Below are positions 282 to 53,306 of a stretch of DNA of 64,000 nucleotides, piece after piece (the first letter of the stretch is position 1; every line of letters starts with the position of its first letter). Position numbers and translations under genes: made by a program. This DNA comes from Deltaproteobacteria bacterium (lineage in GTDB: Bacteria > Desulfobacterota > Desulfobacteria > Desulfobacterales > JAFDMD01), in assembly GCA_019306065.1 (NCBI GenBank), contig JAFDMF010000006.1, forward strand, positions 23,519-87,518. The letters run 5' to 3'. Under the pieces are notes generated by a model that worked only from the letters and a program-made list of their open reading frames with translations, was not told the origin of the DNA and ran no database searches.

Positions 282-386
282 TTTATTTTGCTTGAGTTTA
301 CGGCGGATAAAAATTTTAACCGCAGGAATAATAAAAGTATTTCGAGGAATAAAATTTCATCTGCCTCCGAAATCAAGTAAAAAGAA
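282..386 (+). repeat. Family D ERIC/RPE-like palindromic element (eroded ends)
   Basis: Core ggcggataaaaattttaaccgcaggaata-N-gtatttcgagga shared with the copies at 12962, 23697, 30118, 34056 and 53151. Confidence 0.85.
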
Positions 387-5117: not shown

Positions 5118-5951
5118 ATGACCGCCCCGTCTCGACAGAAAACCTTATACGCAATTTTCGGTAATCCGATAAACCATAGCATAAGTCCCGTTATACATAA
5201 CGCCGCCCTAAAAAATGCAAAAATAAACGGAATATATGCGGCTTTTAAAACTGAAACCGCTCAAGATGCCGTAAAAATGATAAAAGAATTAGACATTGCC
5301 GGAGCAAGCATAACAATTCCGCATAAAACCGATATAATAAAATATATTGATAAAATAGGAGAGACCGCTAAAGAAATAGGCGCCGTCAATACCGTTATAA
5401 ACGAAAACGGGCTTCTTTTCGGCACAAATACGGACGCCGGAGGCGCCATAAAAGCGCTTTTACAACATACCGAAATAGAAAATAAAAATATAGCCATACT
5501 CGGAGCCGGAGGCGCGGCAAGAGCGGTTATTTACGGCGTAAACTTCAAAAAAGGAAAAGTTACTCTATTAAACAGAACCGTAGACAAAGGGGAAAAACTT
5601 GCAAAAGAGTTTAACGTAAATTTTATGCCTCTTTCCGAAATAAACTCCGAAATAAAAAAACATAAGTTTGAAATCATCATAAATACCACAAGTCTTGGAA
5701 TGAAAGGATGCGAAGATCAATCTCCGATTAAAAAAGAGAGCCTTAACAAAGATATAATAGTTATGGATATAATATATAATCCCTTAAAAACAAAACTATT
5801 AAAATATGCGGAAGAAAAAGGTTGTAAAACAATAAACGGGGTTAGCATGCTTGTATATCAGGCGGCGTTACAATTCGAGCTTTTTGTAGGAATTCAAGCG
5901 CCCATAGACATAATGAAAAAAGCGGCTGAAGCAGCCTTGCCTGCGTCATAG
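5118..5951 (+). CDS. aroE: Shikimate dehydrogenase
   Basis: GNPINHSISP, SITIPHK, GAVNT, NTD, GAGGAARA. Confidence 0.95.
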   Translation: MTAPSRQKTLYAIFGNPINHSISPVIHNAALKNAKINGIYAAFKTETAQDAVKMIKELDIAGASITIPHKTDIIKYIDKIGETAKEIGAVNTVINENGLLFGTNTDAGGAIKALLQHTEIENKNIAILGAGGAARAVIYGVNFKKGKVTLLNRTVDKGEKLAKEFNVNFMPLSEINSEIKKHKFEIIINTTSLGMKGCEDQSPIKKESLNKDIIVMDIIYNPLKTKLLKYAEEKGCKTINGVSMLVYQAALQFELFVGIQAPIDIMKKAAEAALPAS

Positions 5952-5998
5952 CCGTAACGCCTTAAAAACACGCTTAAAGATTTCAAAGATTATATGTA

Positions 5999-7255
5999 AT
6001 GCTAAAAATAACTCCGAAAAAAATAAAAACAAACCTTGTAACCATACCCGGCTCAAAAAGCTATACCCACAGATTCCTTATAATCTCCGCATTATCAAAC
6101 GGAGTATGCGTCATAGCAAATCCGCTTAAAAGCGAAGACACCTTTTTAACCCTATCCGCATTAAAAAACTTAGGGATAAACATTGCCGAAGATAATAACA
6201 AAATCATCATAAACGGAACATCCGGCAAAATATACGCCCCCTCTTCTCCCATCTATTTAAAAGGATCAGGAACCTCCATCAGACTTTTAACCGCAGTATG
6301 TTGTTTGGGAAAAGGAAAATTTACGCTTGCCGGAAACAAAGCCCTTAGCTCGCGTCCTATAAACGATTTAATCTCGGCTCTTACGCAAATAGAAGTTTTG
6401 ATAAACTGCCCCGATAAACAAGGATTTCCTCCGTTGGAAATCATAGGAAATAAAAATATAGCCGGCGGAAAAGTAAATATAAAAGCGGGCAAAAGCAGTC
6501 AATACCTTTCGGCTCTACTTATGATCGCCCCTTATACAAAAAAAGGACTTGATATTACAGTTACGGACGAACCAGTATCAAAACCATACATAGATATAAC
6601 CATAGAGGCTATGAAACAGGCGGGCGTTAAAATAGAACGAGACGGTTATAAAAAATTTGTTATAAAAGGGGAGCAAACCTATAAAAACGGAACATATAAT
6701 ATCGAGCCGGACGCCTCCGCCGCCGGATACTTCTGGGCTGCCGCAGCTATAACAAAATCCTCCGTAACCGTAAAAAACCTTAATAAAGAATCAAAACAAG
6801 GAGATATAAACTTTCCTAAAATATTGGAACAAATGGGCTGTAAAATAAAATATACAAACAACGGAATAACCGTTACAGGCGCAAACCTTACAGGCATTCA
6901 AGCGGATATGTCCGATATGCCGGATATGGTTCCCACCCTTGCCATTGTAGCCGCTTTTGCCAAAGGGGAAACAATAATAAAAAATGTGGGACATCTTAAA
7001 ATAAAAGAAAGCGACAGATTAACCGCTATGGAGACGGAACTTAATAAAATAGGAATAAAGGCAAAAGCCTTTGAGGATAAACTTATAATAAAAGGCGGAA
7101 AGCCAAAAGGCGCCGCAATAACAACCTACGACGATCATAGAATAGCTATGAGCTTTGCCATAGCCGGACTTAAAACAGACGGCATAATAATAACCGACGA
7201 AAAATGCGTTGATAAGTCCTTCCCCGATTTTTGGAAAACATTTGAACGCCTTTAA
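5999..7255 (+). CDS. aroA: EPSP synthase
   Basis: PGSKS, SGTSIR, SSQYLSALL, KESDR, DDHRIAM, KSFPDF. Confidence 0.96.
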   Translation: MLKITPKKIKTNLVTIPGSKSYTHRFLIISALSNGVCVIANPLKSEDTFLTLSALKNLGINIAEDNNKIIINGTSGKIYAPSSPIYLKGSGTSIRLLTAVCCLGKGKFTLAGNKALSSRPINDLISALTQIEVLINCPDKQGFPPLEIIGNKNIAGGKVNIKAGKSSQYLSALLMIAPYTKKGLDITVTDEPVSKPYIDITIEAMKQAGVKIERDGYKKFVIKGEQTYKNGTYNIEPDASAAGYFWAAAAITKSSVTVKNLNKESKQGDINFPKILEQMGCKIKYTNNGITVTGANLTGIQADMSDMPDMVPTLAIVAAFAKGETIIKNVGHLKIKESDRLTAMETELNKIGIKAKAFEDKLIIKGGKPKGAAITTYDDHRIAMSFAIAGLKTDGIIITDEKCVDKSFPDFWKTFERL

Positions 7256-7331
7256 TAAACTTTATCCAATTAAACGAATACCATTACTAATAAAAAACCT
7301 ATAAAAACAATTTGCAGATAAGGATTAAAAT

Positions 7332-7958
7332 TTGAGCAAAACTCAAAAAATAAACAAAATAAAAAGTTGCGCGCAAATATACCTAATAGGATATCGAACC
7401 TCTGGCAAAACTACCGTAGGAAAAACTTTGGCAAAAGCGCTATCCCGCAAATTTATAGACTCCGACAAACAAATCATAAAACAAAACAACATGGACATAG
7501 CGGACATAGTAAAAAAATACGGCTGGGATTTTTTCAGACAACAGGAGAAAACCTTTATCAACTCCATAAATCCTTCGGATAAACTTATAATAGCTTTGGG
7601 AGGCGGAGCTATTATAGATTCCGACAACATAAAAACCGTAAAAAAAAACGGAACCATTATATTCCTTAAAACCTCGCCTGATATTATAAAAAAAAGACTT
7701 AAAAACGATAAAAAAACTTCACAAAACCGCCCTCCCCTTTCAAACGCAAATTCAAGCTGTTTGCATAACGCAGAAAACGGACAAAAGGAGAAGCTATGCA
7801 AACGGGTTACTATTAATGAAGTTGATAAAATACTTACAGAAAGAACGCCCATATACAACAAAGCGTCCGATCTTATAATAAATACCGACAACAAAACAAT
7901 CAAACAAATATGCCAAGAAATAAACAAATGTTTATACCTACCACAAAACAAGAATTAA
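7332..7958 (+). CDS. aroK: Shikimate kinase carrying a 19-aa repeat-derived insertion
   Basis: GYRTSGKTTVG, FRQQE, LGGG, RPPL, ERTPIY; start codon uncertain. Confidence 0.9.
   Translation: MSKTQKINKIKSCAQIYLIGYRTSGKTTVGKTLAKALSRKFIDSDKQIIKQNNMDIADIVKKYGWDFFRQQEKTFINSINPSDKLIIALGGGAIIDSDNIKTVKKNGTIIFLKTSPDIIKKRLKNDKKTSQNRPPLSNANSSCLHNAENGQKEKLCKRVTINEVDKILTERTPIYNKASDLIINTDNKTIKQICQEINKCLYLPQNKN
7752..7808 (+). repeat. Mini family D element inserted in frame in aroK
   Basis: gcataacgcagaaaacggacaaaaggagaagctatgcaa matches the D right arm (cf. reverse complement of 30122-30165, and 49461-49515); ends 7754-7769 / 7793-7808 are 13/16 complementary. Confidence 0.8.
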
Positions 7959-9628
7959 AAACTCTCGGATGGAACAAACTTGATATAATAATAGTTACCG
8001 GAGATAGCTATATAGACAACCCATTTATAGGGGCTGCGGTTATAGGAAAACTACTTATAAGCAAAGGCTTTAAAACCGGCATTATAGGGCAGCCGGATAT
8101 CAATTCAAACAAAGATATAACAAGACTCGGCAAACCGACTCTATTTTGGGGAATTACCGGCGGATGCATAGATTCTATGGTTGCAAACTATACCGCTTCC
8201 GGCAAAAAAAGAAAAAAAGACGACTATACCGCCGGAGGCTTAAATAACAAAAGACCGGATCGCGCCGTTATAGTTTACGCAAACCTTATAAGACAACATT
8301 TTAAAAATACAAAACCGCTTGTTCTCGGCGGAATAGAGGCAAGTTTAAGAAGAATACCCCATTACGATTACGCCTCAAACAAACTCCGCAGATCAATACT
8401 ATTCGACGCAAAAGCGGACTACATAATATACGGCATGGGGGAAAAAGCCGTAATTGAACTTGCCGAAAAATTACAAAAAAAAGAAAATACAAACAATATT
8501 GCCGGAACCTGTTACATATCCGCAAAACATAAAAAAGATTATATACAACTTCCGCCTTACGAAGACATTCTAAAAGATAAAAAAACCTTTATACAAATGT
8601 TTAACGCCTTCTACGCAAACAACGATCATAAAACCGCAAAAGGACTTTGTCAAAAAATCGGAGACCGTTATCTTATACATAATCCGCCGGCAGACAATCT
8701 TACGAGCGAACAATTAGATAAAATCTACGATTTACATTATGAAAACGACCTTCATCCCTTCCATAAACAGAAAGGAGACGCGCCCGCCCTTAATACCATA
8801 AAATTTTCCGTAAAAACCCACAGAGGCTGTTACGGAGAGTGCGCCTTTTGCGCTATAGCTATTCATGAAGGAAAAACCGTAATATCAAGAAGCGAAGAAT
8901 CTATAATAAAACAGGTGAAAAAACTAACCCTACATCCCGATTTTAAAGGATACATATTAGACTCCGGAGGTCCTACCGCAAATATGTACGGCTTTGAGTG
9001 CAAAAAAAAAATTACAAACGGAGCATGTAAAGATAAAAAATGTTTATATCCTAAAATATGCTCCTCTTTAAATCCGAGTCATCAAAAACAGATAAACCTT
9101 CTTAAAAAACTTGAAAAAATCAAAGGAATAAAAAAAATATTTATAGCGTCCGGCATAAGACACGATCTTATACTCTCCGATAAAAAATACGGGGAAAAAT
9201 ATCTTAAACAGATCATAAAAAATCATATATCCGGTCAAATGAAAATAGCGCCCGAACATATCGAAGATAAAATCCTCGCTCTAATCGGCAAGCCGGATAA
9301 ACAATGCCTGATAGACTTTGTAAACCTATTTTATAAATATACAAAACAGGCGCAAAAAAAATTATATCTAACCTACTACTTTATGGCGGCTCTTCCCTCC
9401 TCTACGGAAAACGACATGAAAAAACTTAAAACCTTTATATCATCCAAACTTAAAACCAACCCGGAACAAATCCAAATATTTACCCCTACCCCCTCAACCT
9501 ATGCGACGCTATCCTATTATACCGAAGTCAATCCCTTTACAAAAAATAAAATTTATGTTGAAAAAAATATTAAAAAAAAGGAAAAACAGAAAAGCGTCAT
9601 AATATCAAAACGGAGAATAAAAAAATGA
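7928..9628 (+). CDS. ygiQ: YgiQ-family (UPF0313) radical SAM protein
   Basis: GDSYIDNP, DSMVANYT, RPDRA, GGIEASLRR, HRGCYGECAFC; start moved to MFIPTT. Confidence 0.92.
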   Translation: MFIPTTKQELKTLGWNKLDIIIVTGDSYIDNPFIGAAVIGKLLISKGFKTGIIGQPDINSNKDITRLGKPTLFWGITGGCIDSMVANYTASGKKRKKDDYTAGGLNNKRPDRAVIVYANLIRQHFKNTKPLVLGGIEASLRRIPHYDYASNKLRRSILFDAKADYIIYGMGEKAVIELAEKLQKKENTNNIAGTCYISAKHKKDYIQLPPYEDILKDKKTFIQMFNAFYANNDHKTAKGLCQKIGDRYLIHNPPADNLTSEQLDKIYDLHYENDLHPFHKQKGDAPALNTIKFSVKTHRGCYGECAFCAIAIHEGKTVISRSEESIIKQVKKLTLHPDFKGYILDSGGPTANMYGFECKKKITNGACKDKKCLYPKICSSLNPSHQKQINLLKKLEKIKGIKKIFIASGIRHDLILSDKKYGEKYLKQIIKNHISGQMKIAPEHIEDKILALIGKPDKQCLIDFVNLFYKYTKQAQKKLYLTYYFMAALPSSTENDMKKLKTFISSKLKTNPEQIQIFTPTPSTYATLSYYTEVNPFTKNKIYVEKNIKKKEKQKSVIISKRRIKK

Positions 9629-10458
9629 AAAAATATAAACGCCTATTTATTATAATTATACTATTTGCCCTATCCACATCATTTACGGCGTCTGCCGCAA
9701 ATAAAGCCGGAAACGCATCCCTTTTTAAACCCCTTATCGCGGATCCGCGCCAGCCTCATTTTTCGGCTTCTTATCAACGATATATAAATGACGACGAGTT
9801 AAAAAATATCGGTTCTACAAGTTTCGGAGAAACATTTACTTCCCGTCCGTGGAACGCTTTAAACGGTAAAATGAGCGCTGGCATACAAGCGGCTGTTTTT
9901 GCATTCTTTAATCTTGACGCCGAATCTATGGATCTAATAAATGCGGATTATTGGGTAGGCATTCCGCTTCAATACAAAAAAGATAACTTTTCGGCTATGT
10001 TCAGACTGTTTCATCAAAGTTCTCATCTCGGAGACGAATATCTTCTTAATAACCCAATAGGCAGAGTTAATTTAAGCTACGAAAGCATAGACTTAAAAAT
10101 ATCTTACGAGAATATATATGAAGTTTTAAGAGGCTACATAGGCGCCGGCTATATTTTTCATAAAGAGCCGGAAGATCTAAAGCCCGTTTCCGCCCAGTTC
10201 GGAGCCGAATATAAATGCAATAAAACATTTTTAAACGATCTTATAAGACCAATAGCAGGAATCGATACAAAAATGTGGGAAGAAAACGACTGGGGATTAG
10301 ATATATCTCTCAGATTCGGGGTTCAGATGGAAAGCATCGAAAGAAAAGGGAGAAAATTACAGCTTATGTTTGAATATTTTCATGGAAACTCGCCTCACGG
10401 GCAATTTTATAATAGAAAAATAAAATATACAGGCATAGGAACCCATTTTTACTTTTAA
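9625..10458 (+). CDS. DUF1207-like outer-membrane beta-barrel protein
   Basis: Signal peptide, PLIADPRQP, LINADY, HQSSHLGDE, C-terminal Phe. Confidence 0.75.
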   Translation: MKKYKRLFIIIILFALSTSFTASAANKAGNASLFKPLIADPRQPHFSASYQRYINDDELKNIGSTSFGETFTSRPWNALNGKMSAGIQAAVFAFFNLDAESMDLINADYWVGIPLQYKKDNFSAMFRLFHQSSHLGDEYLLNNPIGRVNLSYESIDLKISYENIYEVLRGYIGAGYIFHKEPEDLKPVSAQFGAEYKCNKTFLNDLIRPIAGIDTKMWEENDWGLDISLRFGVQMESIERKGRKLQLMFEYFHGNSPHGQFYNRKIKYTGIGTHFYF

Positions 10459-10722
10459 ACTCTATCTTTAAATAGGCTTCTTTCTCTTTTTGTTCCGTAT
10501 GGCTCGAAATAATCGGCGGCAGTTTTGTATAAAAATAAAAAAGTTGACTACTTATATAATATTAATCTCTAATCACGAAGGGGAAATTGTAGGCGTAGGT
10601 TCGCTCTACTGCTGGTGATCCCCATCTTTATTCTATATAAACTATGTTTTTCTGTGCCAGTTATATATAAAAATTTTATCAAATTTTCTTAAAAGGACTG
10701 AATAAGCGTTTTTGATTATAAT

Positions 10723-11400
10723 CTATTGATCTTTTAAAAAAGTTTCATCTTTAATGCCTGCGGCTATTTTATTCTGAATTTCATACATTAAATCTATAAC
10801 AAGCTTTTTATACTTTTTATAAACCTTATGAGTAACTTTTTCATAAGAAGAAATATCGCCCCCATGAGCGACTGAGTTTCTATACCTTAAAAAATCATAC
10901 ATACAATCTTTTAAGTTCGGGTTTGGATGGTTATAATCTTTCCAATGCGTTTTAAATGGTTTCAAACAAAATGCTTTTAATATTTTATTCAAAACTTCAA
11001 AATTTACATTATTTTTCAAATCGATTTTAGAAGATACGGGATGATATTTATTTGAAAAAAAATCTTTTAATTTTAAGTAAAAACTGATTTTTCCGTTGTC
11101 TTTTTGAGGATATAATTTTAACTGCTTAAAAGTATTTTCCATATGAAAAATTACAATGCTATCTCCAAATTTTTGAAATTCGATCTTTTTTTTGTTCAAT
11201 TCGTCAAGATATAATCTAAAAGCGTTTTGAATAAAACCCTCCCAAATAGAATATATCATTGCTATTGATTGAATTGAAAAAATCTCAAAATGCTTGCGAG
11301 ATAGATTGTATCGTTTTGTAAATACGACCCGTTCTATTTCGAAAAGAGCGCTTTGCCTCTCCTCAATTATTTTTAAAAGTTCATTTTCAAAATCAGACAT
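10723..11400 (-). CDS. HEPN-like nuclease (MAE_28990/RiboL-PSP type)
   Basis: YSIWEGF helix and RNSVAHG (RxxxxH); 6 nt downstream of the DUF262 gene. Confidence 0.8.
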   Translation of the reverse strand: MSDFENELLKIIEERQSALFEIERVVFTKRYNLSRKHFEIFSIQSIAMIYSIWEGFIQNAFRLYLDELNKKKIEFQKFGDSIVIFHMENTFKQLKLYPQKDNGKISFYLKLKDFFSNKYHPVSSKIDLKNNVNFEVLNKILKAFCLKPFKTHWKDYNHPNPNLKDCMYDFLRYRNSVAHGGDISSYEKVTHKVYKKYKKLVIDLMYEIQNKIAAGIKDETFLKDQ

Positions 11401-11406
11401 AACTAT

Positions 11407-12537
11407 CTATTGCTCGCCAAATATTTTGTTAGCCCTTCTTAACCTAGCCCGTATTCTGGTTTTACTATTAGAAGCCACGCCGGAAACCCTTTTAAATTCT
11501 TCGTCATTTTTTAATTTATTTATTTTTGTTTTTAATAATTCAATTTGATCATCATAGCGTTCTATATTTTGCGCTAACCCTATTATGATTCCTTCAAAGT
11601 AAGCAGGCACAAACTGATTTTTATGGTTTCTAAAAACCTTTGCGTCGTCTATGCGTTCAATCATCTTCAAAACTTTATTAAACATTTCTCTATAATATTT
11701 GGGGTCAAATTTACTCTTTTCTACGGCGTTTTTCTGCATAAAATCATTTAAAAATGCCTCCGTATTTTTATTAATTTTTTCTACATTACCTAAATAAGCA
11801 ATAAATCTTAATACTAATTCTTGGTCATAAAGTTCCTGTTTTTTTTGTTTACTCAAATTAGTAAGCTTTTGAAATGCGTCATTGTTACTTATTTCTATAA
11901 TCAACTCATTTATAGTAGAATTTATCCCCCTATAAACAGCGTTTCGTATCTCTTGAGCGGTCGCTTTTGAGCCGCCGGAATTTAATCTTTTAAAAAGCTC
12001 ATATTTCATTACATGACTACTTTCTCCCCGCAATATTTCCACCCTGCAAACAGCTCTTTTTAAATTCATTTTATATTTACTGGGAAGGGTCTCAATATCA
12101 AAGCCTTCTAAACCGGGAATTAAACCGCCTTCTTCCAAAGTCCATTTATTATTTATACTAATCTCTTCTCCATTATCCATCTCTTCTTCATTATCTCTTT
12201 GGAAAACCGACTGTGAAACATTAGTATCTAACTCCCCAAAAAAGCTTATAAAGGTTGAAACTCTTTGCAAGCCGTCAACCAATTCCCAAATTCCATCTTC
12301 ATCCTCTGCCACAAAAATCGGAGGAATGGGAATTGATAGCAATATTGATTCTATAAGCGCCGTTTTTTGTTGTTGATTCCATCTAAAAAAGCGTTGATAT
12401 TCCGGTCTAATAATTAATTCCTTATTTTTATACAGACTAATCAATTCGCCAAAGGAAAGATCCATTCTATCTGCGGAAAGCCTGCCTCTTCCGTTTGAAA
12501 TTTGCTCTTCTAATTCTTTTATTTTTTTTTCGTCCAT
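11407..12537 (-). CDS. DUF262 (ParB-like, GmrS-type) protein
   Basis: PEYQRFFRW, IPPIF, VDGLQR, FKRLNSGG. Confidence 0.88.
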   Translation of the reverse strand: MDEKKIKELEEQISNGRGRLSADRMDLSFGELISLYKNKELIIRPEYQRFFRWNQQQKTALIESILLSIPIPPIFVAEDEDGIWELVDGLQRVSTFISFFGELDTNVSQSVFQRDNEEEMDNGEEISINNKWTLEEGGLIPGLEGFDIETLPSKYKMNLKRAVCRVEILRGESSHVMKYELFKRLNSGGSKATAQEIRNAVYRGINSTINELIIEISNNDAFQKLTNLSKQKKQELYDQELVLRFIAYLGNVEKINKNTEAFLNDFMQKNAVEKSKFDPKYYREMFNKVLKMIERIDDAKVFRNHKNQFVPAYFEGIIIGLAQNIERYDDQIELLKTKINKLKNDEEFKRVSGVASNSKTRIRARLRRANKIFGEQ

Positions 12538-12676
12538 TTTAACCGCTCCTTTTAACCTGCTAATATTCTATAAAAAATTTTTGTTCTTTTTAGTCTGTAT
12601 TAGCAATATATTATTGTCTATTCTCTTACACATAACAAGTCATTTAATTTCTCGCAATAGTGATTTATTATAATCT

Positions 12677-12790
12677 ATGAAGCATATTTTATTTTTCAAA
12701 ATTTACTTGCCAATGAAATAAAAAAACTGCCGTCAAATATCTACCCGCATTATTAAACTTCATTCGCCTATTTCACGAAATAATACCTTT
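12677..12790 (+). pseudogene. Possible small antitoxin remnant (DUF2281-like)
   Basis: With one frameshift reads NLLANEIKKLP-S-KYLPALLNFIRLFHEI, resembling short helical antitoxins. Confidence 0.4.
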
Positions 12791-12961
12791 GTGTCTTTAT
12801 ACCTTTTATCCCTTAACTTTAATATTGAAAAAATAACCGCAACCGATTATTAAATTGATAACTACATTATAAAAAGGATTATAAGCAAAAAAAACCAACT
12901 AAAGTTTAGCGGATAACAATTTCTATTTGCTTTGCGGATAACATAACGATTAATTATAATT

Positions 12962-13105
12962 AATTTCGGCGGATAACAAAGTAATTTGTTTGTTGGCAAG
13001 GCGGATAATAATTTTTAACCGGAGGAATACTTATAGTATTTCGAGGATTAAAAATTGTTATCCAACGCAGTCAACGAGCAAATTACTTTGTTATCCGCCG
13101 AAATT
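12962..13105 (+). repeat. Family D element, complete (144 bp)
   Basis: Perfect 27-bp terminal inverted repeats (12962-12988 / 13079-13105); internal caaggcgg...ccaacgcag and central gaatac-ttata-gtattt hairpin. Confidence 0.92.
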
Positions 13106-13117
13106 TAAAGGAAAATA

Positions 13118-13627: not shown

Positions 13628-13826
13628 GAGACAGGTTCAAAAAAAATAATAAAGGAATTTATCGCTTCGCTCGAAATGACAGAAAGGAAGTTTTTTTGTT
13701 CCGTCATTTTGACGGATGTTATTTTTACTTGTTATTTCGACGAACGAAGTGATGAGAAATCCCTTAATTAAATTATAAACAGAGGAAATCCCCATCACTA
13801 AAATTAGATACAAAAAGGAATGATTA
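13628..13826. repeat. Mosaic of family B pair and family C
   Basis: B pair at 13654-13681 / 13730-13763 with internal tccgtca/tgacgga hairpin; then aattataaacagaggaaatccccat...caaaaaggaatgatta (family C). Confidence 0.75.
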
Positions 13827-21473: not shown

Positions 21474-23690
21474 ATGATAAATAAGCATAGATTTAAAAAT
21501 GCGGTATCTTTTTTATCCGCACAAGAGATACAAAGACGAAAAAAAGAATTTATTATTATAGCTTCTATTATAGCGATAGTTGCGATTTCCACCTTTATTC
21601 AATTAAAGGTTATACGGCTTGGCACAGACATTCCCATATCAAACGCCATATTAATGTTTATATTAATAGATATAAACGTAATGTTATTAATTTTGCTTCT
21701 GTTTCTGGTATTTAGAAACTTAGTAAAACTTTTATATGATAGAAGCAGAAAAGTTATGGGATCAAAGCTTAGAACAAAGCTTGCGGTATCTTTTATAACA
21801 ATGACCCTTTTGCCTACTACGATTCTTTTTTTTCTTTCTATAAGTTTAATGACAACCAGCATAAAATTTTGGTTCGGCGCGGGCGTAGAGAAGGCTTTGA
21901 ACAACTCTTTATCCGCTGTGGAATCGATTTATGATTATATAGATATAAACAACCGTTTTTATCTTGAAAAAATATCTTATGAAGTTCAAAACAAAAATAT
22001 TTTGAAAAATAATAAAAAAGAGTCGTTAAAAAATTATCTTAAAGATACCTCAAAAAGATTCAATTTAAACGGAGTTGAAATATACGATAAAAACTTTAAG
22101 AGAATCTCTTTTTATGCAAAAGAAAATTTATATCCTATCGGCGCGAAAGATTTCATAAATAAAAAAAATAGTAAGGAGATAAAAACAGTATCTCAAAAAA
22201 CCGAAAAAGGCGAGATAATAAGAATCATATCAACCATACCTTTCGGAGTGGAAAATGATCAGGCAAAAGGTTTTGCCGTAGCTTCCACTGTTTTATCCAA
22301 AGAACTTTCTAATAAAATAAACTCAATATCAAAAGGTTATAAAGAATATCGTCAAATAAAAAAGTTTAAAAAACCTATTAGAAGCGCATATTATATAACC
22401 TTTTCAACCGCCGCGTTTTTGATATTGTTTTCATCTTTATGGCTGGGTTTTCGTCTTGCAAGAACAATAAGCGTTCCTATACATGAGCTTGCAGAAGGCT
22501 TAAAAAAGGTAGCGGGAGGCAATCTTGATATAAAAGTAGAAACGGTTGCAGACGAAGAAATAGGAAGTCTTGTAAATTCTTTTAATAAAATGACAAAAGA
22601 TTTAAAATACGGAAGACAACAGCTTGAAGCGGCAACAAAAAAATTAAAAGAAAGAAACGCGGAAATAGAAGAAAGGCGCCGTTATATGGAAGTAGTTCTT
22701 AAAAATATTTCCGCAGGCATAATATCAATCAACGCGGAAGGAAACGTAGCCACAATAAACAAATCTGCCGAAAAAATGCTTAATCTTTCTGCAAAACAGA
22801 TAATATCTAAAAATTATAAAAAACTGTTAAAGTCCGAACATATCAATCTTGTTAAAGATATCAAAAAAAAAATAAAAACCGAAAATTCTTATATTCTTCC
22901 TATACGCCTTACCATAGAAGGCAAAACAAAAAGCTTTATGACCCATATAACCGCATTAAAAGACGAAGCAAAAAATTTAATAGGCACAGTTATAGTATTT
23001 GACGACCTAACCGAATTGGAAAAAGCCGAAAGAATGGCGGCATGGAGAGAGGTTGCCAGAAGAATAGCTCATGAAGTAAAAAACCCTCTGACCCCCATAA
23101 CCCTTGCGGCTCAGAGATTACAAAGAAAATATTACGAAAAAGTAAAAGAGGTAATATTTTCTGAATGCACTACAACCATAATAGAGCATGTCGAGTTAAT
23201 AAGAAACCTTGTAAACGAATTTTCGGAGTTTGCCCGATTTCCTACGGCAAATCCGAAACCCGAAGATGTTTTACATATAATAGAAGACACCTTAATACCT
23301 TATAAAAATAATCATTTAAACATACGGTTTACTTCTAAAGCAATAAATGAAATCCCCAAAATAAATATAGATAAAAACCAGATAAAACAAGCGTTGATGA
23401 ACCTCTTGACAAATGCAGTTGCCTCAATAGATAAAGCAGGCGAAATAACTGTTTTTATATCTTACGATCCGATATTAAAAAAGATAAAAATAGAGATGGC
23501 AGATAACGGAAAAGGAATACTGGATAACGAAAAAATAAGATTATTCGAGCCGTATTTTTCTACCAAAAAAAAGGGAATGGGACTTGGGCTTGCCATAGTT
23601 AATACAATAATATCGGATCATAACGGAACCATAGGAGTTTATGACAACATTCCGAAAGGAGCGAAGTTTGTTATAGAACTTCCGGTATAA
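21474..23690 (+). CDS. NtrY-like HAMP/PAS sensor histidine kinase
   Basis: TM helices, HAMP, PAS, AAWREVARRIAHEVKNPLTPI, DNGKG, GMGLGL. Confidence 0.9.
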   Translation: MINKHRFKNAVSFLSAQEIQRRKKEFIIIASIIAIVAISTFIQLKVIRLGTDIPISNAILMFILIDINVMLLILLLFLVFRNLVKLLYDRSRKVMGSKLRTKLAVSFITMTLLPTTILFFLSISLMTTSIKFWFGAGVEKALNNSLSAVESIYDYIDINNRFYLEKISYEVQNKNILKNNKKESLKNYLKDTSKRFNLNGVEIYDKNFKRISFYAKENLYPIGAKDFINKKNSKEIKTVSQKTEKGEIIRIISTIPFGVENDQAKGFAVASTVLSKELSNKINSISKGYKEYRQIKKFKKPIRSAYYITFSTAAFLILFSSLWLGFRLARTISVPIHELAEGLKKVAGGNLDIKVETVADEEIGSLVNSFNKMTKDLKYGRQQLEAATKKLKERNAEIEERRRYMEVVLKNISAGIISINAEGNVATINKSAEKMLNLSAKQIISKNYKKLLKSEHINLVKDIKKKIKTENSYILPIRLTIEGKTKSFMTHITALKDEAKNLIGTVIVFDDLTELEKAERMAAWREVARRIAHEVKNPLTPITLAAQRLQRKYYEKVKEVIFSECTTTIIEHVELIRNLVNEFSEFARFPTANPKPEDVLHIIEDTLIPYKNNHLNIRFTSKAINEIPKINIDKNQIKQALMNLLTNAVASIDKAGEITVFISYDPILKKIKIEMADNGKGILDNEKIRLFEPYFSTKKKGMGLGLAIVNTIISDHNGTIGVYDNIPKGAKFVIELPV

Positions 23691-23696
23691 AAGTTT

Positions 23697-23817
23697 TACA
23701 TAACTTCCTATTTTACCCGTTTTTTGCGTTATGCTCAAATTTTAATCCTCGAAATACTTTAAGTATTCCTGCGGTTAAAATTTGAGCAAGCCTTGAAAAT
23801 GAAACAAAACTTTGTTA
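23697..23817 (-). repeat. Family D element followed by octamer tandem repeats
   Basis: aaattttaatcctcgaaatactttaagtattcctgcggttaaaattt; then ctttgtta/ctctgttg/ctttgcca/ctttgtta to about 23843. Confidence 0.85.
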
Positions 23818-23956
23818 CTCTGTTGCTTTGCCACTTTGTTACTCTTTTTAATATTTAATGTTGTTATTTTTAATCTTTTTGATATTTGTATTAACGGCAA
23901 AAAAGTTGTATGCAGCGTCCATCTGTAACTCTATATCTTAATAAAAAATAAAAATT

Positions 23957-29280: not shown

Positions 29281-30120
29281 ATGAATATAAACGAACCGAA
29301 AATTACCCCCAATCAAATCTTAAAACTTAACGACCAAAATTTTAACCCGCAAAATATATGTATAGTAAGCGGCGCTGGAACCGGCATCGGCAGAGCCGTT
29401 GCAATAGCCGCCGCTTTTAACGGCATTCTTACCGTAGGGCTTGATATTAACGAAGCGGAAGGCGAAAAAACAAAAAAGCTTGCGGAAGATATAGGCGGTA
29501 AATTGGTTTTTATAAAAACCGATCTTGCCAACGACAAAGGTATTGAAACTGCGGTTGAAGAAGCCTCAAAACTCGGAAAAATAAAATTTTTGGCAAACAT
29601 TGCAGGAATACAGCATATTGATCCTATAGAAAACTTTCCTATGGAAAAATATGATCTAATGCAAAAAATAATGCTTCGCGCTCCTTTTTTTTTATCGAAA
29701 CTTGTAATCCCGTATATGAAAAATCAAAACGAACCTTTTGGAGTTATTGCAAACATGGCGTCCGTTCATGCCCATGTATGCACTATTAATAAATCTGTTT
29801 ATAATATTACAAAATTCGGCTTACGCGCGCTTAGCCAATCAATATCTGCGGAAGGAAACGGAAAAATCCGCTCCTTTACCATAAGCTCAGGATTTGTAAA
29901 AACTCCCCTTGCCCTAAACCAAATACCTTCCCAAGCAAAACAGCGCGGAATAACCGCAGAACAGGTTGTAACAGACGTTATGATGGGAAAATCCAGAGTT
30001 AAAGAGATGATGTCTCCCATAGAAGTTGCGAATCTTTTTATCTTCGGATTTTCAAAACATTCAAAATATCTTATAGGAGGAGACCTCTTATTTGACGGAG
30101 GCATGACATTAACATATTAA
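29281..30120 (+). CDS. SDR oxidoreductase, 3-hydroxybutyrate dehydrogenase-like
   Basis: SGAGTGIG, AGIQHIDPIENFP, ASVH, YNITK, FVKTPL. Confidence 0.85.
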   Translation: MNINEPKITPNQILKLNDQNFNPQNICIVSGAGTGIGRAVAIAAAFNGILTVGLDINEAEGEKTKKLAEDIGGKLVFIKTDLANDKGIETAVEEASKLGKIKFLANIAGIQHIDPIENFPMEKYDLMQKIMLRAPFFLSKLVIPYMKNQNEPFGVIANMASVHAHVCTINKSVYNITKFGLRALSQSISAEGNGKIRSFTISSGFVKTPLALNQIPSQAKQRGITAEQVVTDVMMGKSRVKEMMSPIEVANLFIFGFSKHSKYLIGGDLLFDGGMTLTY

Positions 30121-30261
30121 AACCCTTGCATAACTTCTTATTTTGCTCGTTTTCTATGTTATGCTCAAATTTTAATACTCGAAATACTGTGAGTATTACT
30201 GCGTTTAAAATTTAAGCATGCCTTGAAAACAAACAAAATCCTTTGTTATGCAAGGGTCTTA
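30118..30261 (-). repeat. Family D element, complete (144 bp), beginning at the SDR stop codon
   Basis: taaaacccttgcataac / gttatgcaagggtctta, 16/17 complementary, TA at both ends. Confidence 0.88.
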
Positions 30262-30297
30262 TATTAAAACTCTTTGACTGAATTTTAGACGCAAAAA

Positions 30298-34055: not shown

Positions 34056-34209
34056 TGTTTAAATTTCGATTTATAACAAAGTAGTTTGTTCAAGTGCAAG
34101 GCGGATAAAAATTTTAACCGCAGGAATACTTAAAGTATTTCGAGGATTAAAATTTTTATCCAACGCCGAAATTGGGCAAACTACGAAGCTATAAATCGAA
34201 ATTTAAACA
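34056..34209 (+). repeat. Family D element, complete
   Basis: Perfect 20-bp ends tgtttaaatttcgatttata / tataaatcgaaatttaaaca; full core. Confidence 0.92.
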
Positions 34210-34222
34210 AAGGAGAAAAAAA

Positions 34223-49377: not shown

Positions 49378-49515
49378 TTAATACATAAAAAGAATGATTA
49401 TAAAGATAATAAACAGAGGAAACGCCCTTAACTAAAATTAAACGCAAAAAATAATAACAAAATTTTGTTGGATAACGCCGCAAACGGGCAAAATAGGAAG
49501 TTAGCCAACAAAATT
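49378..49515. repeat. Family C duplication plus mini family D (49461-49515)
   Basis: aattttgttggataac / gttagccaacaaaatt (15/16) enclosing only the D right arm; ends in the maf stop codon. Confidence 0.8.
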
Positions 49516-50104
49516 ATCCGGGAACGGCAATTTTTTCTTTTATTAAAATCTCCATTATTTCGCATACGGGTAATCCCAAAACATTAGTATAAGATCCGTT
49601 TATACTTTTTATAAATAACGAACTGGGACCTAAAAGCGAGTAACCGCCGGATTTATCATAAGGTTTGCCGTTATCAAGATAATGGATAATCTCCTTTTCC
49701 GAAATATCTTTGGAGCAAACATAAGTTTTTTCGCATCCTTTAAAACTTTTCTTTTCCGCATAAGAGTTTATGTAATAGCCGGTATAAACGGTATGCATAT
49801 TGCCGCTTAATTTTTTTATCATATCAAAAGCGTCTTGTCTTGATTTCGGCTTGCCAAGTATCTCTTTATCCGCAATTACTATAGTATCTGCCGCTATTAT
49901 CCAAGAATTTGGGTATTTGCTCGCCACTGTTTCGGCTTTTGCGGCGGCAAGCGCTATAGTATAATCTTCCGGTTCGGATACGGGAATTTTTTTTTCGTCA
50001 AACTCGCTCGGTATTACGATAAAATTAAGCCCTACATCTTTTAATAAAACTTTTCTTCTTTTTGATTCTGACGCCAATATTATCTGTTTTTCATTTATAT
50101 ACAT
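49514..50104 (-). CDS. maf: Maf-family NTP pyrophosphatase
   Basis: ILASES.RR, AADTIV, LGKP, DKSGGY, NVLGLP. Confidence 0.93.
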   Translation of the reverse strand: MYINEKQIILASESKRRKVLLKDVGLNFIVIPSEFDEKKIPVSEPEDYTIALAAAKAETVASKYPNSWIIAADTIVIADKEILGKPKSRQDAFDMIKKLSGNMHTVYTGYYINSYAEKKSFKGCEKTYVCSKDISEKEIIHYLDNGKPYDKSGGYSLLGPSSLFIKSINGSYTNVLGLPVCEIMEILIKEKIAVPG

Positions 50105-53150: not shown

Positions 53151-53289
53151 ATTTGTTATCCAACAAATCATTTTGTTATTTTTACGGCGCTCGAAAATTC
53201 TAACCGCAGACTTATTAAAAATAAGTCGAAAATTAAAATTTGAGCATAACGCCAAAAATATGCAAAATACTTTGTTAAGAAACCAAATT
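53151..53289 (+). repeat. Family D element, divergent
   Basis: ggcgctcgaaaattctaaccgcagacttat-taaaa-ataagtcgaaaattaaaatttgagcataacgcc. Confidence 0.75.
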
Positions 53290-53306
53290 TTAAAAAGGCA
53301 TTTATA

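Follow-up and report, generated by a model that had tools for sequence, protein, structure and literature searches.

A family D palindrome inserted in frame in the shikimate kinase gene of a Desulfobacterales bacterium and its likeness to Rickettsia palindromic elements

The DNA analysed here is a stretch of 64,000 nucleotides (nt) from a Deltaproteobacteria bacterium of the order Desulfobacterales (hereafter the window; positions 23,519 to 87,518 of the forward strand of contig JAFDMF010000006.1, assembly GCA_019306065.1). It carries aroK, the gene of shikimate kinase (7332..7958, + strand), which encodes 208 residues from a TTG start and is the host of a 57-nt insertion, and it also carries several copies of the palindromic repeat, family D, from which that insertion descends. 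Below, G000 is the source genome (1,969,973 bp in 47 contigs, 35.3% GC), G001 and G002 are its two congeners, C-numbers denote contigs, and positions given without a contig are those of the window.

The product of the open reading frame (ORF) at 7332..7958 matches the Pfam SKI model PF01202 over nearly its full length (E 8.4e-41, residues 23-200, profile positions 2-157 of 159), and in an NCBIfam scan the shikimate kinase equivalogs score best. An alignment of 17 AroK sequences has 29 invariant columns, and all 29 are retained in the G000 protein: these include G25 and K26 (GK[TS] of the P-loop), D43, D45, G90-G92, R133-P134 and R171. From solved structures, we take the roles of such positions to be those of the P-loop GxxGxGK[TS], the substrate-binding Asp, the GGG motif, the LID Arg and the C-terminal Arg. 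Structure modelling had been proposed in a preliminary description of this DNA, made from the sequence alone. The AlphaFold2 model, computed from the 17-row alignment, has a mean pLDDT of 86.5 and a pTM of 0.84, and its top Foldseek matches are all shikimate kinases, with target-normalised TM-scores of up to 0.90 against solved structures. The sequence alignments to these solved chains are interrupted just past the RP motif, which is where the insert starts.

G000 has one further gene of the shikimate kinase (SK) fold, C34:31377-31913. It scores best with the SK-type homoserine kinase model NF040667 (182.7 bits, with a cut-off of 197), which is described for Desulfovibrio-like bacteria, and reaches at most 107 bits with shikimate kinase models. 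Because this only SK-fold paralog scores as a homoserine kinase, aroK is, judging by sequence, probably the sole shikimate kinase of G000 and under selection. Directly upstream lies an ORF of 418 aa (5999..7255, +), which we read as aroA (EPSP synthase), naming it by eye from the translation; if so, aroK belongs to a shikimate-pathway gene pair. The strand antisense to aroK holds an open frame of 202 aa (7343-7951, -) which continues through the insert; its composition is non-coding-like, and it is probably a chance frame.

The insertion appears in a DNA alignment to G001 as a single gap of 57 columns, placed by the aligner at 7748..7804 (+). In the codon-aligned reading it comprises 7752-7808, SSCLHNAENGQKEKLCKRV, and corresponds to AroK residues 141-159 (19 aa). 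Its borders are uncertain by a few nt: CAAACG stands both at 7741-7746 and at 7799-7804. The preliminary description had claimed that removing 57 nt restores a normally spaced protein, and the G001 gene, which lacks exactly this number, reads ...NRPSLSNAG-TVNEVDKILAERTPIY... across the site. The description of the insert as a mini family D element with self-complementary ends also holds. The left arm of its hairpin (7754..7767, +) corresponds to the left outer terminus found in class-1 copies of D, with ...GCATAAC as its last letters, the loop (7768..7794, +) is the conserved right-arm core of D, and the right arm (7795..7808, +) corresponds to the right outer terminus. The arms are 14 nt each, 86% complementary and 27 nt apart, and as RNA the hairpin folds with -14.8 kcal/mol (z -3.1), with one of 200 shuffles equally good. 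The loop core is unpaired in the aroK copy because its partner, the left arm with the central hairpin, is absent. In the protein, the insert is located past the RPxL motif of the LID and ahead of the helix with the shikimate-binding Arg. The model is helical there and runs into the C-terminal-Arg helix, with a mean pLDDT of 60 for residues 141-150 and 82 for residues 151-160.

The AroK protein served as query against 41 genomes, namely G000 and 40 relatives. G002 matches over residues 1-208 with 99% identity, one residue of 208 differing, and the 57 nt of the insert are identical in the two genomes. G001 gives two abutting matches, to residues 2-140 and 160-208, which lie in one open frame of 190 aa versus 209. 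The 19 aa are thus confined to G000 and G002 among the 17 aligned AroK proteins, while the other 15, from G001 and 14 other genomes of the order, pass directly from the RPxL motif region to the next helix. Relatives that lack family D had been named as the informative comparison, and the D-free genomes G007, G022 and G029 are indeed among those without the 19 aa. Filled and empty sites also occur in public metagenomes: contigs from four runs of three studies bridge the insert with 0-2 differences, one of them covering the whole 701 nt with two differences, and in one run a contig of a relative with about 87% similarity has 103 nt replaced by 46, a net loss of 57 nt. The 7.1 kb that hold aroK (5999-13108) are 98% identical between G000 and G002, and neighbouring syntenic blocks 77-90%, which hints at recent recombination between the two species.

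The origin of the insert in family D is seen at the level of sequence as well as architecture. A degenerate 22-nt core motif occurs four times in the window against 0.03 expected, twice within much longer repeats. A D profile built from 29 full-length or long copies matches the aroK insert at 7761-7818 (model positions 104-161, 30.0 bits, E 4.2e-7 genome-wide). The preliminary description had raised the comparison with shuffled sequence: a 71-nt segment with the insert scores 29.3 bits, and the maximum among 2000 dinucleotide shuffles is 4.7 bits. The aroK copy consists of the left outer terminus (...GCATAAC) fused straight to the right arm and the right outer terminus. Since class-1 copies contain ...CATAAC two times, once at their left end and once immediately ahead of the right arm, this mini form is the expected product of a deletion between direct repeats. 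The right-arm-only structure that had been likened to that of 49461-49515 is the same in both places: the intergenic mini D at 49461..49521 (+) has the outer stem and right-arm loop (profile positions 105-156 at 49469-49520, E 9e-8; -17.2 kcal/mol, z -3.0). Counting this one, at least four G000 copies besides that of aroK have this build (window 49469, C19:32884, C19:93590 and C43:19323). Shortening of D in place does happen, because the site at 23678-23826 holds a full D in G000 and only the right-arm piece (profile positions 91-148) at the orthologous site of G002; the G001 site has no D.

A second, degenerate piece of D lies at the beginning of the same gene (7321..7373, +; profile positions 91-143, E 1e-5). 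It spans an AAGGA Shine-Dalgarno-like motif (7320-7324), the TTG at 7332 and the first ~14 codons of aroK. G001 has a homologous stretch with an ATG start, and the same codon is ATA in G000. The start of aroK would thus be supplied by the D fragment, with translation from TTG 7332.

A full D is a nested palindrome of about 150-160 nt. It displays an outer stem, a conserved internal loop, a long middle stem, a second stem with a tandem G-A/A-G mismatch and an apical hairpin, and full copies have minimum free energies of -31 to -83 kcal/mol. RNAalifold predicts 33 pairs from an alignment of 26 copies, 18 of them with compensatory changes. With the outer stem included, the structure has 40 pairs: 92.1% of cells are paired versus 81.4% in shuffled alignments, 23 pairs are changed on both sides versus 13.8, and the covariation score is 0.311 versus 0.130 shuffled (reached in 0 of 500) and 0.04-0.10 with the partners slid. 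Palindromes may keep their pairing via repair, and related copies inflate such shuffle tests. Two U.G pairs are preserved in 17-18 of 25 copies, and of the two strands the one shown has the better fold in 23 of 26. Because the G.U pairs are kept, the pairs covary and the shown strand folds better, one strand of D is constrained, as RNA or single-stranded DNA. Rfam 15 gave no match at the gathering threshold in the 64-kb window, which contains five full copies, and in permissive mode only generic long-hairpin miRNA models responded to D (best 27.3 bits, against a threshold of 100).

The five full copies are found at 12960..13113 (+; -82.7 kcal/mol; 1.6 copies at this site in G002), 23678..23826 (-; profile match), 30114..30264 (-; the exemplar, with a class 1 outer stem, -61.4 kcal/mol on this strand and -45.7 on the other), 34056..34214 (+; profile and fold) and 53153..53295 (+; profile and fold, more diverged). 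A partial copy is present at 283..357 (+; profile positions 29-103).

In all of G000 the profile gives 174 matches, which reduce to 143 non-overlapping loci (E<=1e-3), including a few pairs that are the two parts of a single shortened copy; at 73 loci the match extends over at least 120 positions of the profile. The preliminary description had spoken of a family active in this lineage; D is not special to it, being order-wide and patchily phylum-wide. A covariance model from 25 copies, five of the window and 20 from metagenome-assembled genomes (MAGs), detects it in 31 of the 41 genomes and 29 of the 39 genera of the order, with ten genomes giving no match. The number of matches is at least 78 in G000, 86 in G001, 86 in G002, 81 in G003, 85 in G013, 80 in G023, 78 in G033 and 82 in G035. 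Among 121 genomes sampled evenly across the phylum, D is present in 17 more that lie outside the order: three with at least about 29 matches and several with a single strong copy. An exact 23-mer of the D core was found in 21 stretches of a collection of species-representative genomes, at a local GC of 34-56%, all from MAGs titled Desulfobacterales, Desulfobacteraceae, Desulfosudaceae, Deltaproteobacteria or Thermodesulfobacteriota. In viral contigs the same 23-mer had no exact match; exact matching makes this weak evidence. A full-text literature search, which covered neither subscription journals nor supplements, turned up no account of a repeat like this from Desulfobacterales or Deltaproteobacteria.

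Placement relative to genes was judged with a crude set of longest ORFs (1738 ORFs, covering 85% of the genome). The majority of copies lie between genes, often right next to ribosome-binding sites. Of the long copies, 73 in number, 41 are directed into a gene on the same strand, and 27 of these end at most 38 nt from its start codon; 47 follow the end of a same-strand gene, and 32 face a gene end. We considered that D might donate promoters, and dismissed this after finding no sigma-70-like site in the two copies scanned. D can also supply gene ends: the last 22-28 residues and the stop codon of C5:828-2672 and C31:1493-2014 come from it (the former product has 614 aa and is autotransporter-like by eye, the latter 173 aa). 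The loci are unstable among the three congeners. G002 has tandem arrays where G000 and G001 hold remnants, and in another case a copy stands right before a ribosome-binding site in G001 and G002 and is missing at that site in G000. The G002 contigs C120, C136 and C139 start or end within D, with head-to-tail arrays there; D evidently breaks short-read assemblies of these genomes.

A search of CDS for other in-frame copies had been proposed in the preliminary description. In G000, proC has one, and coding copies are the exception, with two internal ones (aroK and proC) among the 143 loci. A first screen of G000, which required at least 30 ORF codons on either side of D, returned aroK as the only credible case, and proC emerged when this requirement was relaxed. 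The proC gene (C22:2692-3693, 333 aa, with F420_oxidored and P5CR_dimer domains) contains a complete D in frame. As read by eye at the junction, it has a net gain of 48 codons after about codon 6, ahead of the GxGxxG motif, and proC of G001 and G002 is without the insert. Its start region, an AAAGGA motif with ATG, is recognisably homologous to those of G001 and G002, and neither ATG nor GTG occurs from the D copy to the GxGxxG motif. Another four G000 ORFs, each wholly containing a piece of D, were set aside as spurious-looking by composition, a judgement made without a family scan.

A search with the G000 ProC protein found D-like peptides inside long open frames of G002, two of them clear. 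Between its RNA-binding and HD domains, the CCA-adding enzyme of G002 (C193, locus L100:1110-2747; 546 aa; the others are PolyA_pol and tRNA_NucTran2_2 domains) contains D in frame, as 1.7 tandem copies. Its G000 ortholog (C13, locus L106:224-1630; 469 aa) is 79% identical, shows a gap of 81 columns at the insert and retains only about 30 nt of the D left end, in frame. The second is a DUF2400 protein (C35, locus L101:818-1768; 317 aa) with a full D in frame, a net gain of 43 residues relative to the 265-aa G000 ortholog (L107:335-1129), which lacks D. Possible N-terminal fusions to D were seen in a SurA-like lipoprotein and an ABC ATPase of G002, and a possible C-terminal one in G001, all with ambiguity of start or contig end.

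The inserts of aroK, proC, the CCA-adding enzyme and the DUF2400 protein share one reading frame (...HNKK.CSF...GLKFEHNAE..Q..KLCK...), and the D-derived peptides of the coding copies have 46-57% identity to the first sequence. This frame is open in 10 of 54 anchored full-length G000 copies. In the 45-nt right arm alone it is open in 68 of 87, and the other two frames in 60 and 29. Because the frame is open in so few full-length copies, the coding copies look like a selected subset rather than what an element built for coding would yield. A profile of the D peptide matched 291 of 1.84 billion representative proteins at E<=0.001. Among the best 150, 146 have at most 152 aa and look like ORFs called across intergenic copies, and two of the four long ones are the CCA-adding enzyme and SurA-like cases of G002 (P0003, P0084). 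The other two, P0086 and P0141, match in many weak stretches. As far as these best 150 show, coding D copies are rare outside this genus. A word-based search of longer proteins with the D peptide returned the G000 ProC itself and no other.

We consider it very probable that the 57 nt are a mini, non-autonomous copy of D inserted in frame in aroK, that the gene is functional, and that such insertions recur in the genus in the manner of Rickettsia palindromic elements (RPEs). The mini form would have arisen from a full D by loss of everything between the ...CATAAC direct repeats, and a D copy would have entered aroK after the split from the G001 lineage. As the number of nucleotides in the insert is divisible by three and no stop interrupts the right arm in frame, the insert would be read through as 19 residues, presumably leaving the kinase core unaffected and aroK still functional. 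D has repeatedly given rise to in-frame, stop-free insertions in housekeeping genes of this genus, each in the same reading frame, and would have spread by some transposition. Tolerance by AroK is suggested by an unbroken frame, by catalytic residues that are conserved, by the absence of another shikimate kinase and by the structural model.

Several observations weigh against this explanation. No clean target-site duplication was seen at the aroK junction, where the imperfect 6-nt repeat is one base out of register with a 57-nt duplication, or at the junctions of proC (within an A-run), the CCA-adding enzyme and DUF2400 (both of which align poorly). The outer stems of D are complementary within a copy and different between copies, unlike terminal inverted repeats (TIRs) bound by a transposase. 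The two candidate partner enzymes compared with D, Y1 transposase and integron integrase, do not follow it either. The Y1 transposase family PF01797 matches 38 of the 41 genomes irrespective of D, with up to 22-24 matches in D-free genomes; the sole match in G000 (C14:96579-96902) has one internal TAA and no D locus within ~7 kb, and G002 has none despite its at least 86 D matches. The integron integrase TIGR02249 is above cut-off in 19 of the 41 genomes, including the D-free G011, G029, G034 and G039 and none of G000-G002. Beside four single-copy Ds in genomes of other families there is no transposase or parent element; the neighbours encode a histidine kinase, a family-698 membrane protein, a DegT aminotransferase, an iron-containing alcohol dehydrogenase (Fe-ADH) and PsiE. 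The claim that the family is active in this lineage is thus upheld only by presence/absence differences among the three congeners and finds no transposition mechanism, in the form of a clean target-site duplication or a partner enzyme, behind it. The two carriers of the aroK insert may also stem from a single event spread by recombination, judging by the 98% identical block, and would then not be independent observations. Translation of the insert, and with it expression, is deduced from the DNA. Finally, among the internal parts of the predicted structure the insert has the lowest confidence, and it lies beside the mobile LID, so activity may be lowered.

A real alternative for the route of entry, which we regard as the less probable one, is that the 57 nt arose by recombination or template switching with another D, or by trimming in place of a full-length D, and not by transposition of a mini form. 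It would account for the want of a clean target-site duplication and a transposase and for the short CAAACG repeats at both aroK junctions, and D is shortened in place and duplicated in tandem at other loci; the CCA gene, with ~30 nt of D left end in G000 and 1.7 copies in G002, is a case in point. Trimming, however, would have to pass through a viable intermediate state of a gene that is probably the only one for shikimate kinase, and a full copy is open in frame in only 10 of 54 instances. The at least four mini copies of the same build at unrelated sites fit recurrent deletion and movement of a mini form alike.

We also entertain, tentatively and as a doubtful extension of the preferred explanation, that D is an undescribed phylum-wide mobile hairpin whose sequence and three-tier structure are held by strand-specific selection, which spreads via a single-stranded DNA or RNA hairpin intermediate with the help of host enzymes and no dedicated transposase, and which has started to colonise CDS in one genus, of small genomes and from vents and sediments, through a single permissive frame. 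If this is true, D would be the first element outside obligate intracellular bacteria to generate new protein segments in the RPE manner, and it may also act as a movable module of 5' untranslated region and start codon, as at the start of aroK.

We find it unlikely that D, instead of being selfish DNA, acts first and foremost as a structured RNA with a function, or as a strand-specific signal in single-stranded DNA, so that the aroK copy would be retained because of what it does to the mRNA and its peptide would be incidental. Such a role might be that of a hairpin that stabilises mRNA or is processed by RNase III, or of a module before ribosome-binding sites that controls translation. The strong covariation, conserved G.U pairs and better folding of the shown strand in 23 of 26 copies agree with such a role, as do a core that is near-invariant across genomes of 34-56% GC, the positions of long copies (41 of 73 into same-strand genes, 27 within 38 nt of the start, and 47 after a same-strand gene end) and the ribosome-binding motif and TTG of aroK inside a D fragment. 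The pairing of long palindromes can, however, be maintained by intrastrand repair without selection, and orientation is mixed, with 41 copies into a gene start versus 32 facing a gene end. No Rfam family matches D, and the two copies scanned have no sigma-70-like promoter. At orthologous sites of the congeners D varies in presence, number and completeness, from tandem arrays to decayed remnants, unlike a required regulator. The aroK mini copy itself, which is without the left arm and central hairpin, is incapable of forming the conserved structure.

It is improbable that the insertion has inactivated or crippled aroK, leaving a decaying pseudogene with shikimate phosphorylation performed by another kinase or dispensable. 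One could point to the position beside the LID, which must close over the substrates, to the G001 ATG that is ATA in G000 and makes the TTG necessary, and to the second SK-fold kinase on C34. Against these stand 208 codons open in an AT-rich genome, with all 29 invariant columns intact, and an allele that is nearly unchanged in G002 (one of 208 residues) and present in four metagenome runs of three studies. The adjoining ORF read as aroA is intact, and the paralog reaches 182.7 bits as a homoserine kinase and no more than 107 as a shikimate kinase. An artefact of assembly or binning is hardly conceivable: D is high-copy and G002 contigs often end inside it, but the same 57 nt are found in two separately assembled genomes and are bridged by contigs of four runs.

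Returning to the account of an in-frame insertion of a mini D, its closest parallel is with the RPEs (Ogata et al. 2000 Science 290:347, through a review, PMC10969869). According to the review, RPEs, like D, are many-copy palindromes (~100-150 bp for RPEs) with no transposase of their own; a subset lies in frame and stop-free in unrelated housekeeping genes, adds a family-specific peptide, and is inserted where the fold can tolerate it. The hosts differ: RPEs, as described there, reside in obligate intracellular bacteria, while D resides in free-living vent or sediment bacteria of another phylum. Coding copies of D are rare (2 internal of 143 loci in G000), whereas that same source places nearly half of the RPEs belonging to three of the ten families within ORFs. 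D is further set apart by its three-tier nested hairpin, its strong covariation and its spread over the order and beyond. The preliminary description had proposed an analogous coding palindrome family, and the empty site in G001 and three more genes with in-frame copies (proC, the CCA-adding enzyme and DUF2400) bear it out; our verdict is that family D is a new RPE-like family of coding palindromes. It would be grouped with RPEs as working alike, not as a member, the likeness being one of description with no sequence relationship expected.

Among MITEs (miniature transposable elements with inverted repeats), some are known with in-frame intragenic copies, such as ERIC of enterobacteria and QMITEs of Coxiella (PMC10969869). 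As portrayed there, they are, like D, short, of non-coding origin, hairpin-forming and mostly intergenic, with occasional in-frame fusions to ORFs and overlaps with gene starts and ends. D differs from them in having no conserved TIR, no clean target-site duplication at the four junctions, two of which align poorly, and no parent insertion sequence that we found. We do not identify D as a MITE, which would have conserved TIRs and a parent insertion sequence, as its outer stems differ between copies and no parent element was seen beside the four single-copy Ds.

With repetitive extragenic palindromes (REPs) and REPINs, D has in common high copy number, extragenic hairpins, compensatory pairing, strand-specific structure and long persistence in a lineage. 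REPs are 20-40 bp long with a GTAG or CGTC tag, and are mobilised by a Y1 transposase, RAYT, whose gene is flanked by REPs. D has 150 nt, and the Y1 gene of G000 is interrupted and far from D and G002 has none; a REPIN/RAYT identity is not supported, as Y1 occurs irrespective of D in the 41 genomes and its G000 copy is not flanked by D. An identity with integron attC sites was rejected: the integrase does not track D, D is scattered in both orientations among housekeeping genes, and most of its terminal heptamers do not fit the attC cores RYYYAAC/GTTRRRY. The Correia or NEMIS elements of Neisseria are palindromes of ~150 bp near genes, are co-transcribed with them, form hairpins that suit RNase III and have internally deleted forms, and they possess defined 26-bp TIRs, a TA duplication and promoter parts. 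D resembles them in size, closeness to genes, long hairpins and short internally deleted forms, but is without 26-bp TIRs, TA duplication or promoter parts at the sites checked.

To our knowledge, Rickettsia alone is the textbook case of housekeeping genes colonised by in-frame palindromes, and the phenomenon is commonly linked there to the relaxed selection of intracellular parasites. The same phenomenon in free-living bacteria of Desulfobacterales type, with a 2-Mb genome and clean empty and filled sites among congeners, would provide a second, independent system. Such a system bears on how elements enter genes, on which positions of a fold accept 19-80 extra residues, and on whether inserted peptides can become functional. 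D is among the most abundant conserved structured repeats of its order, with at least 80 copies in many genomes, covariation and no Rfam entry. It also breaks assemblies and creates spurious small ORFs (most of the best 150 of 291 peptide matches have 44-150 aa), and it supplies gene starts and ends, so that recognising it would improve the annotation of MAGs.

Two features of the window lie apart from family D. About 60 nt separate the aroA-like ORF from the sequence upstream of it in G000 (5937-5999), versus about 1.1 kb in G001 and G002; this is either a deletion in G000 or an insertion in G001/G002. At 13637-13816 there is a second, unrelated dispersed repeat of about 170 nt, which has many matches in G001 and G002.

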